Below, one piece after another: positions 11,426 through 24,932 of a stretch of DNA of 64,000 bases. Location of the stretch: the IMG/VR virus record IMGVR_UViG_3300037466_003648, positions 64,001 to 128,000 of that record; one strand, written 5' to 3'. Within the stretch, counting starts at the first letter, position 1. Each line of letters begins with the position of its first letter. The stretch comes from a virus. Taxonomy: Duplodnaviria > Caudoviricetes. The position numbers were made by a program, and so were the translations under genes. The notes beneath the pieces are model-generated. The model was not told the origin of the DNA, ran no database searches, and worked only from the letters and a program-made list of their open reading frames with translations.

Positions 11426-11763
11426 CGTCTCTCCGCTTCGGTGTGGCGTTCGCCGTGACGTTGCTGGTCAGCCAGCTGCTCCTCTCGGCCTCGGTCGGCG
11501 CCCGTCAGCCGTACCATCCTGATGTTTCGATGCCGGGTTGGACACTCAACAACCACCCCGGCGGTGGTCCCTACGTCTCGATCTTCGAGCAGTGCCCGAA
11601 CTTCGACCTGTTGCTGGTACACGATCGCTTCGGCATCGTCGAGCCCCGACCGGGTTGGTGGTACGCGGGTCAGGACGAACACGTCCCTGGTTACTTGATC
11701 TACCGCCGACCGCAGAACAAGAGCTTCCAACAGATCTGGACGGTCGATCCGTCCCCGCACTAG
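11422..11763 (+). CDS. secreted or membrane hypothetical protein
   Basis: GGAGG SD, ATGA overlap, hydrophobic N-terminus. Confidence 0.65.
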   Translation: MTSLRFGVAFAVTLLVSQLLLSASVGARQPYHPDVSMPGWTLNNHPGGGPYVSIFEQCPNFDLLLVHDRFGIVEPRPGWWYAGQDEHVPGYLIYRRPQNKSFQQIWTVDPSPH

Positions 11764-11771
11764 GAGATCCA

Positions 11772-12314
11772 ATGCCCGACACGAACTACAGCGGCTACTA
11801 CCAGCACTACAAGGGTGGCTACTACCAGCGGCAGCTCTGCGGTAACAGCTGGACGGTGCTCGACACCACCTCCGGGAAGGAGCTGGCGATCTACAGCGCC
11901 GTTAACGAGGACGAGTACAAGCACGCCGCGTTCGCTCGTCCCGTCGAAGAGTTCGAAGGCACGGTCGAGGTGGATGGCAAGACCGTCCCGCGCTTCCGTC
12001 TGATCGGAGCCGACGAGAAGGTCCGCGTCGTCTGGTACACCTACATGTGCCCGATGTGCGGAGACCAAGCGCTGCCGGGCAAGTTCAGCTCGAAGCAGAT
12101 CTTGCTTGACTCTCGCGAGGCGCTCACTCTCGACGAGTTCTCGTGCTACAGCTGCCGCATGGACTTCGAAGAGTCCGTTGGCGAGGGCTGGCGCGAAGCC
12201 CAGTCGTTCTCGCGCAACATCCGCGAGAACTCGATCAGCGTCGTGCCTCCCCTGGTGGCACGCTGGCGCAAGGACATCGAGACCGTCGCCCGTGTAGCAC
12301 CGACCGACGAGTAG
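11772..12314 (+). CDS. DUF1653-like domain protein with CxxC motifs
   Basis: YQHYKGGYY...IY...FARPVEEFEG...RF pattern. Confidence 0.7.
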   Translation: MPDTNYSGYYQHYKGGYYQRQLCGNSWTVLDTTSGKELAIYSAVNEDEYKHAAFARPVEEFEGTVEVDGKTVPRFRLIGADEKVRVVWYTYMCPMCGDQALPGKFSSKQILLDSREALTLDEFSCYSCRMDFEESVGEGWREAQSFSRNIRENSISVVPPLVARWRKDIETVARVAPTDE

Positions 12315-19957: not shown

Positions 19958-20030
19958 GGCGGAGTGGGCCAGCGGCTACGCCGGGAGTCTCATAAGCTCC
20001 AGATCGAGGGTTCGAGTCCCTCCTCCGCCC
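19958..20030 (+). tRNA. tRNA-Met/Ile2 (CAT), elongator type
   Basis: GGCGGAG/CTCCGCC acceptor, GGAGT-ctCATaa-GCTCC, TTCGAGT loop. Confidence 0.9.
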
Positions 20031-20061
20031 CCTAATCGTACCTTGACAACCTAACACACTA

Positions 20062-20153
20062 GGGCAGATGGTCGAGAGGCCGATGGCACCTGTTTCGAAA
20101 ACAGGAGGCCGGTGTAACAAGCCGGTCCGGGGGTTCGAATCCCTCTCTGCCCG
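20062..20153 (+). tRNA. tRNA-Ser(CGA)
   Basis: cloverleaf with long variable arm, G73. Confidence 0.92.
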
Positions 20154-20161
20154 CTTAACTT

Positions 20162-20247
20162 GGGTGGTTGGCAGAGAGGCCGATCGCGCGACTTTGCTAA
20201 AGTCGTGACCTCTATGGGGTCCGTGGGTTCGACTCCCACACCACCCG
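20162..20247 (+). tRNA. tRNA-Ser(GCT)
   Basis: cloverleaf with long variable arm, G73. Confidence 0.92.
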
Positions 20248-20250
20248 CCT

Positions 20251-20326
20251 TGGTCTGTAGCTCAACTAGCAGAGTGCTGGATTCTGACTCCAGAGGTTGC
20301 GGGTGCGAGTCCCGTCAGACCTGCCA
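20251..20326 (+). tRNA. tRNA-Gln(CTG)
   Basis: cloverleaf, encoded CCA, T-loop TGCGAGT. Confidence 0.88.
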
Positions 20327-20331
20327 TCAAT

Positions 20332-20404
20332 GGTCCTATCGTTCAGAGGCCAAGGACGCCGCATTGTCAATGCGGTAACACGGGTTCGAATCCCGTTAGG
20401 ACCG
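20332..20404 (+). tRNA. tRNA-Asp(GTC)
   Basis: cloverleaf parsed by hand. Confidence 0.92.
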
Positions 20405-20408
20405 CCTC

Positions 20409-20467
20409 GGGCATCGCCTACCCAGACCGTGGTGACGCGGCGTAAGTAGGAGCAACGGTGTCCACCA
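20409..20467 (+). ncRNA. armless Ala-identity (G3:U70, A73, CCA) minihelix-like RNA
   Basis: GGGCATCG/CGGTGTCC stem followed by ACCA; inner CCTAC/GTAGG stem; no D, T or anticodon arm. Confidence 0.55.
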
Positions 20468-20471
20468 ATAT

Positions 20472-20544
20472 GCGCGTGGAGCTGGGTTGGTTCAGCGCCG
20501 CCTTGCCAAGGCGGAGTCCACGGGTTCGATCCCCGTTACGCGCT
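20472..20544 (+). tRNA. tRNA-Gly(GCC)
   Basis: cloverleaf, U73. Confidence 0.92.
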
Positions 20545-20549
20545 CTCAT

Positions 20550-20621
20550 TGCTACGTAGCACAGCGGTAGTGCGGCGCACTGTTAATGCGAAGGTCGCTG
20601 GTTCGATCCCAGCCGTAGCAG
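20550..20621 (+). tRNA. tRNA-Asn(GTT)
   Basis: cloverleaf, G73. Confidence 0.92.
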
Positions 20622-20626
20622 CCTAT

Positions 20627-20698
20627 GCCCCAGTAGCTCAATGGCAGAGCGTCTGCCTTTGGAGCAGATGGTTGTCCGTTCAAGTCGGACCTGGGGTT
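20627..20698 (+). tRNA. tRNA-Gln(TTG)
   Basis: cloverleaf parsed by hand. Confidence 0.88.
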
Positions 20699-20709
20699 CT
20701 CAAGTTCCT

Positions 20710-20782
20710 GGTGATGTAGCTCAACAGGTAGAGCAAGCTCTTGATAAGGGCTAGGTCGGAGGTTCGAGTCCTCCCGTCACCA
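20710..20782 (+). tRNA. tRNA-Ile(GAT)
   Basis: cloverleaf, A73. Confidence 0.92.
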
Positions 20783-20790
20783 CCTCAAGA

Positions 20791-20925
20791 CGGTCGCGGG
20801 TAGCCAAATGGGTTTAAAAGTACCCGGCGGACGAGCGGCTGGTGTTCCTACGGGACCCGGTCATCCGCCTCGACGGTCTGATCTAGCGGAAGGACGCTCC
20901 GCAAGTGGGTGAGAATCCCACACCC
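20791..20925 (+). ncRNA. structured RNA ending in D-arm/T-arm-like elements
   Basis: GGGTA/TACCC; GGCGGA/TCCGCC stem with cTACGg loop; GTGGG-TGAGAAT-CCCAC T-arm-like hairpin. Confidence 0.45.
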
Positions 20926-20928
20926 TTT

Positions 20929-20999
20929 GGGTCTATAGCTCAATGGCAGAGCTGCCGACTCTTAATCGGTAGATCAGAGTTCGACTCTCTGTGGACCCA
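20929..20999 (+). tRNA. tRNA-Lys(CTT)
   Basis: cloverleaf parsed by hand. Confidence 0.92.
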
Positions 21000-21003
21000 C
21001 TCC

Positions 21004-21075
21004 GCCGGTGTGGCTCAATGGTACAGCAGTTGATTTGTAATCAACCACCTCTCGGTTCAAGTCCGGGTACCGGCA
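21004..21075 (+). tRNA. tRNA-Thr(TGT)
   Basis: cloverleaf parsed by hand. Confidence 0.92.
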
Positions 21076-21088
21076 TCGCACAGTTCTC

Positions 21089-21161
21089 GCTGGTGTAGCT
21101 CAGTTGGTAGAGCGGCTGCTTCGTAAGCAGCGGGTCACGAGTTCGATTCTTGTCACCAGCA
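21089..21161 (+). tRNA. tRNA-Thr(CGT)
   Basis: cloverleaf parsed by hand. Confidence 0.93.
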
Positions 21162-21166
21162 CCTAC

Positions 21167-21238
21167 GGTCGTCTGGCGCAACGGTGGCGCGGCTCCTTTA
21201 CACGGAGAGGGTTCAGGGTTCGAGTCCCTGGATGACCA
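21167..21238 (+). tRNA. tRNA-Val(TAC)
   Basis: cloverleaf parsed by hand. Confidence 0.92.
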
Positions 21239-21242
21239 CTAA

Positions 21243-21314
21243 CGGAATGTACGCAAGGGGTATGCGGTCTGCTTTGGGAGCAGGAAGTCGGGGGTTCAAA
21301 TCCCTCCATTCCGA
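21243..21314 (+). tRNA. tRNA-Pro(TGG)
   Basis: cloverleaf, C1:G72, A73. Confidence 0.92.
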
Positions 21315-21319
21315 CCTTT

Positions 21320-21401
21320 GGGGGTATAAGGGCTGTCGATTCGGTGAAAGCCCCATGCGGGAACGCCGAAGACCTGGGTTCAATTCCCAGTACCTCCACC
21401 A
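21320..21401 (+). ncRNA. tmRNA-like RNA reduced to the tRNA-like domain (no tag reading frame)
   Basis: GGGGGTA/TACCTCC with G3:U70, stemless D-loop ending TCGA, helix TTCGGTG/CGCCGAA, GAC linker, CTGGG-TTCAATT-CCCAG, ACCA. Confidence 0.8.
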
Positions 21402-21404
21402 ACG

Positions 21405-21541
21405 ACAGGGGCAACAAGGTGACCTGACCTTCCCCTACGCACCGCTCAAGGCCGTGTGGTTACAGGTGACGCTCGGGAGAGGACACCCGCTGATGGCTTG
21501 CCTCGCGGACACCGGGTGACAGTCGGGAATAGACCGGCACC
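21405..21541 (+). ncRNA. unassigned structured spacer RNA
   Basis: nested AGGGG/CCCCT and AAGGT/ACCTT; 3' GTCGG-GAATAGA-CCGGC hairpin. Confidence 0.3.
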
Positions 21542-21547
21542 TTTCAC

Positions 21548-21619
21548 GCCCGTTCAGCTCGTCGGTCGAGCATCTCCTTGACATGGAGAAGGCGGCTGGT
21601 TCAACTCCAGCAACGGGCT
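21548..21619 (+). tRNA. tRNA-Val(GAC)
   Basis: cloverleaf; U73 is atypical. Confidence 0.88.
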
Positions 21620-21625
21620 CTACAC

Positions 21626-21701
21626 GCCGTGACAGTCTGACTGGACAGATCTCTGGCCTTCATCCAGAGGGAAGCGGGTTCGAGTCCCGCACGCGGCACC
21701 A
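21626..21701 (+). tRNA. tRNA-Glu(TTC), atypical (C33)
   Basis: TCTGG-ccTTCat-CCAGA, encoded CCA, one acceptor mismatch. Confidence 0.75.
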
Positions 21702-21713
21702 TCAACAAATCAT

Positions 21714-21788
21714 GCCCCGGCAGACTGCTCGGCAGGGTCGCCAGGTTCTCAACCTGGAGGTAGGTGGGTTCGAATCCCCCGCGGGGTG
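21714..21788 (+). tRNA. tRNA-Glu(CTC)
   Basis: CCAGG-ttCTCaa-CCTGG; mismatches in the acceptor and T stems. Confidence 0.78.
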
Positions 21789-21795
21789 CCTTAGT

Positions 21796-21922
21796 CCTAC
21801 GTTAGCTTCAAGCCGTATCGAGAGGTGCGGACACCGCCTGGGTGACCAGGATAGTCGGTGGGTTAGAGCGACCCAGGATTCTGTGCCTGGGGAGGTTGTC
21901 GGTTCGAGTCCGGGGCGTAGGA
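21796..21922 (+). ncRNA. tRNA-like RNA with a 57-nt D-loop and 8-nt anticodon loop
   Basis: CCTACGT/GCGTAGG acceptor, TA, D-stem GCTT/GAGC, CCCAGG/CCTGGG stem, TTCGAGT loop. Confidence 0.7.
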
Positions 21923-21929
21923 TACTAAC

Positions 21930-21996
21930 GGGAGATGGCAGATCCTTCCGATAGGCTGCAGGGCGGGCAACCGCCGTAAGTGCAAAACTGCCACCC
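21930..21996 (+). ncRNA. small structured spacer RNA
   Basis: TGGCAG/CTGCCA closing stem; GGCGG-GCAA-CCGCC GNRA hairpin. Confidence 0.3.
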
Positions 21997-22002
21997 TTCA
22001 AT

Positions 22003-22075
22003 GCGGTAGTAGCTCAGTTGGCAGAGCGCGTGCCTTCCAAGCATGATGTCGCAGGTTCGAAGCCTGTCTACCGCA
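22003..22075 (+). tRNA. tRNA-Gly(TCC)
   Basis: cloverleaf parsed by hand. Confidence 0.92.
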
Positions 22076-22104
22076 CCTGGTCGTAGCAAGAGAAGGAGAT
22101 CGCC

Positions 22105-22266
22105 ATGGCACATTACAAGCGGAAGAAGCAGAAGGAACGGGTTCGTCGGACCAGCGGCTACGACACGGAGAAGGTCCGAGCCTCTTACCACGGATGGCAC
22201 GCCTTGCTGCCTGCCATCCGTCTGCAGATGATCAAGGTCAAGGAAGAGCTGCGCGACGCAGCGTAA
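22105..22266 (+). CDS. small basic protein (53 aa) inside the tRNA array
   Basis: AAGGAG SD; MAHYKRKKQKERVRR... Confidence 0.6.
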   Translation: MAHYKRKKQKERVRRTSGYDTEKVRASYHGWHALLPAIRLQMIKVKEELRDAA

Positions 22267-22271
22267 GTTAT

Positions 22272-22411
22272 GGCCGGGTAGCTCAAGAGTAGAGCGCGAG
22301 CCTGATAAGCTCGTCTTCGTTGCGTAGTGGACACTGATCAACCACGGTAGCAACGAAGCGGTTGGAGGTCGCTCCTTCAACTGATGCCGGTGACGACTCC
22401 GGCCCTGGCCG
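22272..22411 (+). ncRNA. tRNA-like RNA (GAT anticodon) with a 72-nt two-hairpin variable region
   Basis: GGCCGGG/CCTGGCC acceptor, normal D arm, CGAGC-ctGATaa-GCTCG, GCCGG-TGACGACT-CCGGC, G73. Confidence 0.72.
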
Positions 22412-22426
22412 CCCTTCACAACATCT

Positions 22427-22499
22427 GGGCCTGTAGCTCCAATGGTAGAGCAGCTCCTTTGCAAGGAAAGGGTTGGCGGTTCGAGTCCGCCCAGGTCCA
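22427..22499 (+). tRNA. tRNA-Ala(TGC)
   Basis: G3:U70, A73; weak anticodon stem. Confidence 0.85.
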
Positions 22500-22501
22500 C
22501 T

Positions 22502-22610
22502 GGTTCTCACGACGTCCCGTGAACCTTGTTCGAACTGTTGCAACAGTTCGAACAAGGGTAGATGACAGGGATCAAAGCGCTGAAAGGTAAGCCGCGTCGT
22601 GAGAACCGCC
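22502..22610 (+). ncRNA. structured RNA with a 13-bp terminal stem and 34-bp perfect palindrome
   Basis: 22502-22514 pairs with 22595-22607; palindrome at 22524-22557. Confidence 0.5.
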
Positions 22611-22613
22611 CTT

Positions 22614-22686
22614 GGTCGGGTAGCTCCAACGGTAGAGCAGGCGCCTGAAAAGTGCCGTGTTGTCGGTTCGAGTCCGACCCCGACCA
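22614..22686 (+). tRNA. tRNA-Phe(GAA)
   Basis: cloverleaf parsed by hand. Confidence 0.92.
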
Positions 22687-22703
22687 CTCTTTTGATCCAG
22701 GGG

Positions 22704-22733
22704 TTGACAGATCCCATCTATGTGTGTTAGGGT
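22704..22733 (+). promoter_or_regulatory. internal promoter of the tRNA array
   Basis: TTGACA 22704-22709, 18 nt, TG-n-TAGGGT 22728-22733. Confidence 0.7.
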
Positions 22734-22867
22734 TGTCCAACTATGAACGCCGTGATCGCCAACTTGCTGTTGCTAGCCCTGCCGGTTGCAGGGTATCGAC
22801 GCTGGCGACATTCTTCTTGCGGCGGTCGACTTACCCTGCATCTGGCGTAACCTCTTCACTCCTTTCT

Positions 22868-22950
22868 CGGGACGTGGCGAAATGGCAGATGCGCCTGGCT
22901 CAGAACCAGGTGGGCGAAAGCCCGTGGGAGTTCGACTCTCCCCGTCCCGA
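22868..22950 (+). tRNA. tRNA-Leu(CAG)
   Basis: cloverleaf with variable arm, A73. Confidence 0.92.
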
Positions 22951-22954
22951 CTCT

Positions 22955-23037
22955 GCGGATGTGGCGTAATGGCAGATGCGCACGCCTGAGTAGCGTGTGA
23001 GCGTAAGCTCGTGTGAGTTCGAGTCTCACCGTCCGCA
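22955..23037 (+). tRNA. tRNA-Leu(GAG)
   Basis: cloverleaf with variable arm. Confidence 0.92.
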
Positions 23038-23043
23038 CTACAA

Positions 23044-23126
23044 GTCGGGATGATGAAATGGCAGCCTTGGTGGTCTCAAAAACCGCTGTCCGTAAGGACG
23101 TGGGGGTTCGACTCCCCCTCCCGGCA
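23044..23126 (+). tRNA. tRNA-Leu(CAA)
   Basis: cloverleaf with variable arm. Confidence 0.88.
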
Positions 23127-23149
23127 CTCTTCCAGTACCTTGACAATCT

Positions 23150-23224
23150 GTGCCCGCAGCTCGATGGACGAGCACTCCCCTCCGAAGGGAGCGGTTGCGC
23201 GTTCGAGTCGCGCCGGGCACGCCA
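23150..23224 (+). tRNA. tRNA-Arg(CCG)
   Basis: cloverleaf, encoded CCA. Confidence 0.92.
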
Positions 23225-23225
23225 T

Positions 23226-23298
23226 GTGCGTGTAGTTCAAACGGAAGAACGTCGGCCTCCTAAGCTGACGGTTGCTGGTTCGAGTCCAGCCGCGCACT
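23226..23298 (+). tRNA. tRNA-Arg(CCT)
   Basis: cloverleaf parsed by hand. Confidence 0.9.
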
Positions 23299-23302
23299 CT
23301 AA

Positions 23303-23375
23303 GCCCGCATAGCTCAATTGGACAGAGCACTGGTCTACGAAGCCGGGGACGTAGGTTCGACTCCTACTGTGGGTG
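23303..23375 (+). tRNA. tRNA-Arg(ACG)
   Basis: cloverleaf parsed by hand. Confidence 0.9.
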
Positions 23376-23379
23376 CTGT

Positions 23380-23451
23380 GGTGACTGTAGGCTAACGGTA
23401 AGCCGCCTGATTGTGGATCAGGTGATGCGGGTTCGATCCCCGTCAGTCACA
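23380..23451 (+). tRNA. tRNA-His(GTG)
   Basis: cloverleaf with encoded G-1; A73 rather than the usual bacterial C73. Confidence 0.9.
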
Positions 23452-23456
23452 CCTAT

Positions 23457-23537
23457 GCCAGTATGGGTGAGTAGCAATACCGGCTGCCTGTAAAGCAGCT
23501 CCCTCTGGGTTCCCTGGTGCAAGTCCAGGTGCTGGCA
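23457..23537 (+). tRNA. tRNA-Tyr(GTA)
   Basis: cloverleaf with variable arm; T-loop TGCAAGT. Confidence 0.88.
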
Positions 23538-23543
23538 CTCCAT

Positions 23544-23614
23544 CTACCGGTAGCCAAGTAGTAAGGTAGCGGTCTGCAAAACCGCCAGCGTGGGTGCGAT
23601 TCCCACCCGGTAGT
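23544..23614 (+). tRNA. tRNA-Cys(GCA)
   Basis: cloverleaf, U73; T-loop TGCGATT. Confidence 0.88.
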
Positions 23615-23618
23615 CTCT

Positions 23619-23690
23619 GCGTCGTAAAGATTACGGTAGTCGGCTGGTCTCCAAAACCAGCAGCGGTGGGTTCGACTCCCCCACGATGCG
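23619..23690 (+). tRNA. tRNA-Trp(CCA)
   Basis: cloverleaf, G73. Confidence 0.88.
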
Positions 23691-23697
23691 CTCTCTT

Positions 23698-23781
23698 GGT
23701 TGGTAGGGTTCAGTGGTGAGCACCACCGTCGGAAGCGGTGGCCGGGTGTCACAGCCTTCGGTTCGACTCCGATGCCAACCG
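23698..23781 (+). tRNA. tRNA-Ser(GGA), 8/4 architecture
   Basis: 8-bp acceptor GGTTGGTA/TGCCAACC, 4-bp T stem TCGG/CCGA, variable arm, G73. Confidence 0.75.
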
Positions 23782-23791
23782 CCTCATCCCC

Positions 23792-24163: not shown

Positions 24164-24508
24164 ATGGACATCGGCGGGTATAGCCACCCCAAAGCTCGCA
24201 AGCAGCACGTCTGCTACATCTGTAGCACGTTCATCGAGGTGGGTGAGACCTACACCCGCTGTAAAGGTCTCTGGCAGGGTGAGTGGCAGAACTGGTGTGC
24301 CCACAAGATCTGTCTTGCCATCGAAGATGCCAGCCGCGACTGTTGCGACGACGAGTTGTCCCAGTTGGGGTGGTCGGAGTTGGTCGAGCTGTGTACCACG
24401 GAAGCCCATCTCTGCACCTTCCTCGAACGTTTCCCTCCCGAAGATGAGGAGCAAGCCAAGCTCGCTCACTTCCAAGCCAAGCATTTAGGAGCACGTCAGC
24501 ATGCCTAG
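24164..24508 (+). CDS. Cys/His-rich hypothetical phage protein
   Basis: GGAGG SD; KARKQHVCYIC...CAHKIC. Confidence 0.7.
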   Translation: MDIGGYSHPKARKQHVCYICSTFIEVGETYTRCKGLWQGEWQNWCAHKICLAIEDASRDCCDDELSQLGWSELVELCTTEAHLCTFLERFPPEDEEQAKLAHFQAKHLGARQHA

Positions 24509-24932
24509 CGCCCTTCTCCCCATCAAGAACGACTACCACATCATGGGTCTGCGGGGCATCTTCCGCACCGAGATCAAGTTCGAGGAGAACCACGTCAACC
24601 TCACGATCAACAACGTCGAGGTCCAGCTGGCGCATCAAGGGCTGCAGGACATGCGCGCCATGGAGATGCGCTACCAGCTCGTGCGTGCCATCCACCAGAA
24701 CCAGGAGTTCACGATGTGCTACACGACGCCGGGCACCAAGAAGGTGGCCTCCACGGATGTCGTCGTGCGCGTGCTGCCCATCAAGCTCGGCTTCATCGAG
24801 ACGCCGCTTGCCAAGGCCAAGTCCTGGGTGCTGACTGCCTCCGTGGACGGCAAGGAGCAGGACTTCCTGGTGGAGAACATCCGGGGCACCTGGAACTACC
24901 TGATGCACGTCAAGCAGGAGGCCACCGCGTGA
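24501..24932 (+). CDS. hypothetical protein, C-terminal part possibly WYL-like
   Basis: Y...RVLPIKL...WVLTA...DFLVENI loosely resembles a WYL domain. Confidence 0.55.
   Translation: MPSALLPIKNDYHIMGLRGIFRTEIKFEENHVNLTINNVEVQLAHQGLQDMRAMEMRYQLVRAIHQNQEFTMCYTTPGTKKVASTDVVVRVLPIKLGFIETPLAKAKSWVLTASVDGKEQDFLVENIRGTWNYLMHVKQEATA

Follow-up and report, generated by a model that had tools for sequence, protein, structure and literature searches.

A tRNA-Ile(GAU)-derived gene with a two-hairpin variable region in the tRNA array of a soil phage: a candidate chassis RNA

The stretch of DNA analysed here, referred to as the window, comprises 64,000 nt and corresponds to positions 64001-128000 of an IMG/VR phage record that is 205,180 bp long and bounded by direct terminal repeats. 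The phage originates from soil or rhizosphere metagenomes, and the G+C content of the window is about 62%. A tRNA array is located at positions 19958-23783 of the window, where ARAGORN detected 32 genes that are all encoded on the plus strand and cover all 20 amino acids. The array is preceded by genes for a papain-like peptidase and a metallophosphoesterase and by a MazG-like gene, and it is followed by small open reading frames and a replication module. Inside the array, at positions 22272-22411 and in the same orientation as the array tRNAs, lies a further gene of 140 nt that specifies a tRNA body with a strongly enlarged variable region. A consensus scan yielded no promoter or terminator tied to this long tRNA gene. 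The relevant features of the locus are the following, with all coordinates referring to the window:

20710-20784, plus strand: canonical tRNA-Ile(GAT) gene with the discriminator A73
22105-22266, plus strand: open reading frame of a 53-aa ORFan with the Shine-Dalgarno sequence AGGAG; its stop codon lies 5 nt upstream of the long tRNA gene
22272-22278, plus strand: 5' strand of the acceptor stem (GGCCGGG), paired with 22404-22410 in the Rfam alignment and the MFE structure; 7 bp including one G.U pair, with T at position -1
22281-22295, plus strand: D arm (GCTC / AAGAGTA / GAGC) with a 4-bp stem and a 7-nt loop in the Rfam alignment and the MFE structure
22296-22314, plus strand: anticodon arm with a closing G26.U44 pair and a 5-bp stem (stem-loop at 22297-22313)
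22302-22308, plus strand: anticodon loop CTGATAA with the anticodon GAT at 22304-22306
22314-22385, plus strand: variable region of 72 nt
22315-22358, plus strand: hairpin 1 with a perfect 9-bp stem (CTTCGTTGC/GCAACGAAG) in the MFE structures of the whole RNA and of the insert
22359-22383, plus strand: hairpin 2 with a 10-bp stem (CGGTTGGAGG/CCTTCAACTG) that includes two G.U pairs and a 5-nt loop TCGCT in the MFE structure
22384-22385, plus strand: AT linker, the sole spacer between hairpin 2 and the T stem
22386-22403, plus strand: T arm (GCCGG / TGACGACT / CCGGC) with a 5-bp stem and an 8-nt loop
22404-22411, plus strand: 3' strand of the acceptor stem (CCTGGCC) followed by the discriminator G22411

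The assignment of the gene to the tRNA family was obtained with the Rfam model RF00005, which matched it in a search of a short stretch with 39.2 bits (cut-off 29) and an E-value of 5e-7 over model positions 1-71. The resulting alignment contains one insertion of 69 nt that is located at the variable loop. No call was made by ARAGORN at 22272-22411, and the gene was missed by the filters of the Rfam scan of the whole window. The MFE structure of the 140 nt consists of exactly the cloverleaf and the two extra hairpins (-70 kcal/mol, ensemble frequency 0.32). The fold has a z-score of -5.27, with none of 200 shuffled sequences folding as well, and the insert folded alone reached a z-score of -6.0. 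A cloverleaf was obtained for 26 of 33 array members, and the long tRNA is equally well-behaved. An earlier sequence-only reading had described normal acceptor, D and anticodon (GAT) arms, and these were recovered at the same positions by the Rfam alignment and the MFE structure. Its variable region at 22314-22385 with a perfect 9-bp stem and an apical extension, its T-loop of 8 nt, its discriminator G22411 and the A73 of the ordinary tRNA-Ile at 20710-20784 are likewise present. The second hairpin that it proposed exists, but the 6 bp assigned to it (CGGTTG/CAACTG) turned out to be too short for the actual stem of 10 bp.

All four canonical stems of the long tRNA are fully paired. Beyond its 9-bp stem, hairpin 1 continues with an internal loop GTA/GGTA and a 4-bp stem GTGG/CCAC that is capped by an 11-nt loop (ACACTGATCAA). 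The two hairpins directly adjoin one another and the anticodon stem, with zero unpaired bases between them. T22385 occupies the place of position 48 and can, as read from the sequence, form the Levitt pair with A15 (22286). The D loop AAGAGTA is devoid of the GG pair and belongs to the A18-G19 type, and the T loop TGACGACT represents the TGCGA type with one additional A and without the usual T-Psi-C. The anticodon loop contains G34, A35, U36, A37 and A38 as in tRNA-Ile(GAU), and its sequence CTGATAA occurs only once in the 205-kb genome. The discriminator is followed by CCC, so that the CCA end is not fully encoded. Class I tRNAs have a variable loop of 4-5 nt and a T-loop of 7 nt, in place of which the long tRNA has 72 nt and 8 nt.

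The body of the long tRNA belongs to a subtype of tRNA-Ile(GAU) of phages and tRNA arrays that is defined by the D-loop A-R-GAGUA and the T-loop UGCRA, in which G replaces the second U. Exact-pattern scans retrieved the same D arm from normal-length tRNAs of phages and tRNA arrays, and tRNA-Ile(GAU) genes of this subtype were found at 11 loci in JGI metagenomes and in three tRNA arrays of GTDB genomes, with TGCRA T loops in most of them. The other members of the subtype that were found are all of normal length and have A73 wherever this position is readable. This nucleotide was read in nine normal-length relatives (L097, L099, L101-L105, L107 and L145, with L145 duplicating L103). Positions 15 and 48 are A/T or G/C in 9 of the 11 loci with normal-length relatives, and the long gene keeps A15 and T48. 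The closest comparison is provided by the normal-length genes of L103/L145, L097, L099, L102, L105 and L147, which share with the long tRNA an identical D arm, the anticodon loop, the elbow variant (no G18-G19 pair, G55), the 15-48 pair and the location in a large array. These genes have a length of 71-75 nt (according to ARAGORN where run), a variable loop of 5 nt, a T-loop of 7 nt and A73, whereas the long tRNA has 69-72 extra nucleotides at the variable loop, an extra T-loop base and G or A at position 73. Since the D-arm, T-loop and 15-48 features are common to both, the long tRNA is, judged by these sequence characters, a descendant of the phage-type tRNA-Ile(GAU) that has gained about 70 nt at positions 44-47 and a single additional A in the T-loop.

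Several of the phage's own tRNAs, namely tRNA-Gln(CTG) at 20251-20326, tRNA-Tyr at 23457-23538 and tRNA-Cys at 23544-23615, also have T loops of the sequence TGCGA or TGCAA together with D loops that lack GG. The recurrence of this combination of a non-GG D loop and G55 in tRNAs of phages and arrays suggests an alternative elbow design. Since the odd D and T loops of the long tRNA are shared by the phage's own and other array tRNAs, they are not to be regarded as decay.

The long form is carried by four assemblies that belong to one phage population (the window, L020/L142, L143 and L144). Among these assemblies 139 of the 140 nt are invariant and the discriminator alone varies, with G in the window and L143 and A in L020/L142 and L144; the A73 allele is linked to a different downstream cassette. 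The contigs from four soil or rhizosphere DNA runs additionally include one short contig that covers the long gene and is identical. All copies are identical apart from position 73, and covariation is therefore absent. A diverged homologue of the long form was not found, and the long form is absent from relatives whose DNA polymerase is 78%, 64%, 60% and 52% identical. In the relatives with 78% polymerase identity, the syntenic place holds at least five tRNAs at the contig start of L024 and two in L096, with no long tRNA in either, and in those with 52-64% identity (L025, L026 and L027) no tRNA array is present at the syntenic place; L027 yielded one doubtful ARAGORN call on the minus strand. 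A 145-nt spacer preceding tRNA-Ala in L024 was considered as a homologue and proved to be unrelated to the long gene. Searches with the neighbouring proteins led to no further arrays.

The long form was also not among the matches of exact-pattern scans of IMG/VR, the JGI metagenomes and the GTDB genomes. In these scans, the pattern of the hairpin 1 tip had no match, that of the T arm matched by chance only, in coding DNA, and those of the D arm with or without the anticodon loop returned normal-length tRNAs alone. Patterns with a long variable region gave either nothing or artefacts bridging two adjacent genes. A cloverleaf descriptor permitting variable regions of 25-130 nt retrieved this gene alone from 1.69 Mb of phage DNA, and in the literature we found no report of a naturally occurring tRNA whose variable region of about 70 nt forms two hairpins. 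Since it was not found beyond this phage population, the long form may be evolutionarily young and not yet tested by selection. The lack of conservation that the sequence-only reading had named as an argument against its own proposals thus applies in part, as the long form is absent from every reachable relative and present in near-identical strains.

The comparison of strains also revealed variation elsewhere in the array. A palindromic hairpin element of 113 nt (22501-22613, z-score -7.6) is located between tRNA-Ala and tRNA-Phe, and in a sister strain (L020 2407-2943) the interval 22501-22700 of the window is swapped for another tRNA-Phe gene (79% identical) and an open reading frame of 142 aa without a Pfam family. 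This strain-variable region of palindrome or tRNA-Phe/ORF cassette starts about 90 nt downstream of the long tRNA. In the compared stretch before the cassette (20096-22501), just two strain differences were detected apart from those in tRNA-Gly(GCC) at 20472-20545, in which five positions differ between two strains. By reading of the sequence, the stem differences at positions 31, 49 and 66 of this tRNA keep pairing by exchange between G-C and G.U.

The variation at position 73 bears directly on the proposal of the sequence-only reading that the long tRNA is mischarged, with SerRS being recruited by the long variable region and G73 and serine consequently being delivered to Ile codons. In the window's strain, the long variable region and G73 are accompanied by the pairs G1-C72, G2-C71 and C11-G24, and SerRS charges allo-tRNAs with long V-arms and non-Ser anticodons (PMC5389517, PMC7590224). 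However, A73 replaces G73 in two of the four assemblies and is present in the nine normal-length relatives, including the duplicate record. Because these relatives have A73, G73 is most simply interpreted, on comparison of the sequences, as the derived allele of a strain polymorphism and not as a designed serine mark, an interpretation that removes the main support for a serine-accepting tRNA. Moreover, the D arm belongs to class I (4-bp stem, 7-nt loop), unlike those of the phage's three tRNA-Ser genes, and the variable region consists of two abutting hairpins of 44 and 25 nt instead of one arm of 13-22 nt. The long tRNA displays neither the single variable arm of about 13-25 nt combined with a D arm of class II nor the constant G73 by which tRNA-Ser and class II tRNAs are recognised. 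One bulge in the V-stem can abolish charging by SerRS (PMC7590224), and hairpin 1 contains an internal loop after 9 bp. A substitution of Ile by Ser would also harm the phage's own proteins. Taken together, a serine-accepting tRNA is hardly credible, and this part of the sequence-only reading is not supported.

The identity elements recognised by IleRS comprise, in the E. coli set, the discriminator A73 and the pairs C4-G69, U12-A23 and C29-G41, and the set of this host may differ. The long tRNA contains C4-G69 and U12-A23, and the pair 29-41 is A-U and not C-G. It is conceivable, although distinctly unlikely, that the gene specifies a working tRNA-Ile(GAU) isoacceptor that is charged by IleRS and used by the ribosome, with the enlarged arm serving as a tag or as armour, for instance against a host nuclease directed at tRNA-Ile or its hinge region. 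Consistent with this, the anticodon loop CUGAUAA is of the Ile type, the cloverleaf is intact, both of the aforementioned identity pairs are in place and A73 is found in half of the assemblies. Additionally, tRNAs with extended, aptamer-tipped V-arms can act in translation (PMC7590224), and defence nucleases are known to attack the variable arm (PMC13096335). Evidence against it is provided by G73 in the remaining assemblies, A29-U41 in place of C29-G41, the 8-nt T-loop and the canonical tRNA-Ile(GAT) that the phage already possesses. Furthermore, the Baby Spinach aptamer (about 50 nt) placed in the V-loop of E. coli tRNAs left no more than marginal tRNA activity, according to the account of that work cited in PMC7590224, and the present insert is larger and comprises two helices.

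With respect to the origin of the insert, blastn-short searches detected no second copy in the genome. Since it is single-copy, the insert does not represent a dispersed repeat, and it gives no sign of a mobile-element family. A MITE-like insertion, which would be expected to occur in further copies and to be bounded by terminal inverted repeats and a target duplication, was likewise discarded. The two hairpins are unrelated to each other, and the insert had no blastn match among the 50,697 phage records of INPHARED. A derivation from arms of array tRNAs, including a match of 16 of 20 positions to tRNA-Ala, was rejected, as 132 of 500 shuffled sequences scored as well. The 11-nt loop of hairpin 1 contains the self-complementary sequence CTGATCA, which resembles the anticodon loop of the long tRNA. 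GATC occurs 1636 times in the whole genome, with about 700 occurrences expected from the base composition, and TGATCA occurs 78 times with 24 expected. Because both are two- to three-fold over-represented genome-wide, CTGATCA was given no weight, and its interpretations as a pseudo-anticodon, a codon mimic or a kissing palindrome were dropped as evidence. Inspection by eye revealed neither a K-turn in the internal loop of hairpin 1 nor a hammerhead core at CUGAUCA. A phage tRNA-Ile(UAU) with a variable arm of 25 nt and a 7-nt loop CAGAUUA was observed on the minus strand of L135 (730-822). The long tRNA does not conform to such a design, in which a tRNA-Ile with a UAU anticodon bears a short, GAU-tipped second arm, as its main anticodon is GAU.

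Besides the long tRNA gene, the phage genome contains three further sequences that fold as tRNA bodies with large inserts. In the predicted fold of the sequence at 21796-21922 of the window, a tRNA body closed by an 8-bp stem bears two additional hairpins in its D region, together with a T arm with TTCGAGT and a 6-bp arm with an 8-nt loop. ARAGORN reported a tRNA-Leu(TAG) at 21832-21921, and the Rfam tRNA model had no match there. The two others constitute a second small tRNA array at genome positions 11792-11939 and 11613-11784 (L148 993-1140 and 814-985). In the former, the anticodon loop of an outer tRNA body encloses a complete tRNA-Asn-like gene, and the MFE structure is a double cloverleaf; the latter, directly adjacent, folds as a tRNA body that harbours a folded domain of some 90 nt. 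Because three other sequences fold in this manner, with their inserts located in the D region or the anticodon loop, inserts in tRNA loops are, as far as the predicted structures indicate, a theme of this genome and not a one-off accident. It is possible, though somewhat doubtful, that tRNA bodies serve this jumbo phage as a general chassis for folded modules, with one module accommodated in the variable loop (22272-22411) and others in the D region (21796-21922) or in the anticodon loop (genome 11613-11939). In this case, the host tRNA-processing enzymes would mature and stabilise a set of small effector RNAs directed at phage proteins or at the tRNA-binding defences of the host, a natural counterpart of the 'tRNA scaffold' used in the laboratory. 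The sibling RNAs could also reflect an insertion process instead of a function.

A different kind of tRNA-like RNA was noticed at 21320-21401. This 82-nt RNA matches only the tRNA-like domain of tmRNA, with 43.2 bits for the Rfam tmRNA model (cut-off 47), and has an acceptor stem with G3:U70, a normal T arm and an encoded ACCA end. A tag reading frame and pseudoknots are both absent from it.

The insert might alternatively be an intervening sequence that is excised, the halves being rejoined, perhaps with sealing by a phage RNA ligase, or staying paired as an ordinary tRNA-Ile. Without the 69 nt the remaining 71-nt sequence folds as a normal cloverleaf, and the phage does encode an RNA ligase (PF09414 with the PHA02142 OB domain; genome 44627-45748, L108 988-2109). 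Introns of the archaeal type are marked by a bulge-helix-bulge structure, in which two 3-nt bulges separated by a 4-bp helix are located at the exon-intron junctions. The junctions of the long gene (22314/22315 and 22383-22385) coincide with the bases of perfect, bulge-free helices, and the first and last four bases of the intron (CTTC and ACTG) cannot form the central helix. Moreover, the region 22080-22430 had no Rfam match to a group I intron or a small ribozyme at E-values up to 10, self-splicing introns are far longer than 70 nt, and no splicing endonuclease was identified. The product would in addition duplicate an existing tRNA and retain the odd T-loop. A certain parallel is provided by the Lak megaphages (PMC6784885), large phages in which tRNA genes are interrupted by conserved extra sequences described as 'enigmatic introns'; one of these inserts holds a tRNA, as is the case for the tRNA-in-tRNA at genome 11792-11939. 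Since the prediction of the Lak inserts relied on tRNAscan with its eukaryotic intron model, they are presumably located in the anticodon loop, whereas the insert studied here occupies the variable loop, and there is no sequence relation between them. An excised insert is regarded as improbable.

Among the alternatives, more weight is due to a young pseudogene, although we consider it unlikely as well. A spare phage-type tRNA-Ile(GAU) would have received the structured insertion of about 70 nt in the variable loop and the 1-nt insertion in the T-loop, and would now be drifting, persisting because the event was recent. The gene is found in one near-clonal population and in none of the reachable relatives, it is redundant with the canonical tRNA-Ile(GAT) at 20710, and its discriminator, an identity base for IleRS, is polymorphic. 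The T-loop has 8 nt, and the array is in flux, as shown by the palindrome and the tRNA-Phe/ORF cassette that differ between strains about 90 nt downstream. Against a pseudogene it can be argued that a chance insertion would rarely land in a variable loop of 5 nt, that all helices are still perfect and the 15-48 pair is kept, and that the single-copy insert bears no sign of a mobile-element family. The three further tRNA bodies have their inserts just as neatly in loops. If the gene is a young pseudogene, it shows how the tRNA genes of phage arrays gain loop insertions.

The interpretation that we tentatively favour, at somewhat less than even confidence, is that the long tRNA represents a chassis RNA derived from tRNA-Ile(GAU) that acts as decoy or docking platform and decodes poorly or not at all. 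It is preferred because sibling tRNA bodies with large inserts are present in the same phage. It unites two further proposals of the sequence-only reading, a nuclease decoy and a scaffolded functional RNA, on the circumstantial evidence of the intact helices and the other insert-bearing tRNA bodies. Since the phage has a canonical tRNA-Ile(GAT) with A73, decoding does not need the long gene. The RNA is probably a poor decoder or none, because it combines an appendage of 70 nt with a T-loop that is one base too long and a freely varying discriminator. The extra base in the T-loop could equally signal decay.

For the favoured chassis RNA, we infer the following course of expression, processing and action. 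The RNA is probably transcribed together with the array, since the gene lies inside it in the same orientation and no promoter-like or terminator-like site was found around the gene. Because the minihelix of acceptor and T arm is intact, its release by the ordinary tRNA enzymes is expected, with RNase P cutting after T(-1), the 3' end being trimmed and CCA being completed from the encoded N73-CC. The mature RNA would retain the L-shaped core, including G26.U44, A15-U48 and the elbow variant formed by A18/G19 with U54-G55-C56. In place of the variable loop of 4-5 nt it would contain two helices, one of 13 bp with an 11-nt loop and one of 10 bp with a 5-nt loop. As no linker separates the hairpins from one another or from the anticodon stem, both are expected to stack and to protrude from the hinge, at the site used by the variable arms of class II tRNAs. 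Such a stable tRNA mimic would offer a protein both an anticodon loop of the Ile type and two hairpins. Candidate partners are a host defence nuclease that targets tRNAs or another tRNA-binding factor, for which the RNA would be a decoy or sponge, and a phage protein that docks on the hairpins.

Several observations are consistent with a chassis RNA acting in this setting. The variable arm of tRNA-Tyr is cleaved by Septu and retron-Eco7, an attack against which phage tRNAs act as supplements or decoys (PMC13096335); hairpins at the tips of V-arms can sequester tRNAs or recruit proteins (PMC7590224). The RNA ligase and the metallophosphoesterase beside the array fit a phage under tRNA-directed attack. 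The 53-aa ORFan encoded immediately upstream has a coding-like G+C content of 0.61/0.39/0.76 at the three codon positions and contains 8 K/R among its first 15 residues. Homologues of it are lacking outside this phage, and it belongs to neither a Pfam nor a PHROG family. Judged by its composition, this basic product is a candidate partner of the long tRNA and could possibly be an RNA-binding peptide.

The long tRNA was also compared with known RNAs that share part of its architecture. Class II tRNAs (Ser, Leu, Tyr and Sec) and allo-tRNAs likewise have an extra helix between the anticodon and T stems in an otherwise intact cloverleaf. The class II arm is a single hairpin of about 13-25 nt, with D arms adapted to orient it, whereas the long tRNA combines two hairpins of about 70 nt with a class I body. 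Allo-tRNAs are characterised by 8/4 or 9/3 acceptor/T stems (PMC5389517), and the long tRNA has 7/5. Engineered V-Spinach tRNAs and aptamer-tagged allo-tRNAs (PMC7590224) resemble it in that a tRNA body carries a folded foreign module, is matured by tRNA enzymes and is stabilised by the tRNA fold. Such modules in the V-loop or V-arm can bind proteins or sequester RNA; those constructs are man-made and the long tRNA is natural. In the recombinant 'tRNA scaffold' of Ponchon and Dardel, another man-made design of this kind, the cargo reportedly replaces the anticodon arm. The long tRNA keeps this arm, and no ligand was recognised for its cargo. The tRNA cluster of phage T4 specifies species 1 and 2 (rnaC/rnaD), stable non-tRNA RNAs of about 120-140 nt that are released by tRNA processing. 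To our knowledge, these RNAs are not described as complete cloverleaves with an enlarged variable region, and they are likened to the long tRNA by description.

Phage tRNA arrays are now viewed as weapons against tRNA-cutting defence systems. If the favoured chassis reading is true, such arrays also encode non-decoding, tRNA-shaped RNAs that present folded cargo at the hinge. These would constitute a further class of small phage RNAs that is skipped by standard tRNA finders and would provide a natural precedent for the V-loop scaffolds of RNA engineering. They would also point to a so far unrecognised tRNA-binding factor of host or phage.

Two minor observations were made in the relatives and the neighbourhood of the array. 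Intergenic repeats of the motif GGGGA(A)CACGG(A/T), which is not enriched in the window, were detected in L026 (4400-5010), L025 (5690-6135) and L027 (9040-10005), often after promoter-like TTGACA boxes, and are located at or near the counterpart of this phage's array. Moreover, a homologue of the window's open reading frame 24501-24932 is encoded on another metagenomic contig (L149 958-2485) directly after a gene for an RNA ligase of the Rnl1 type, and because of this neighbourhood the family of this open reading frame may belong to RNA repair.
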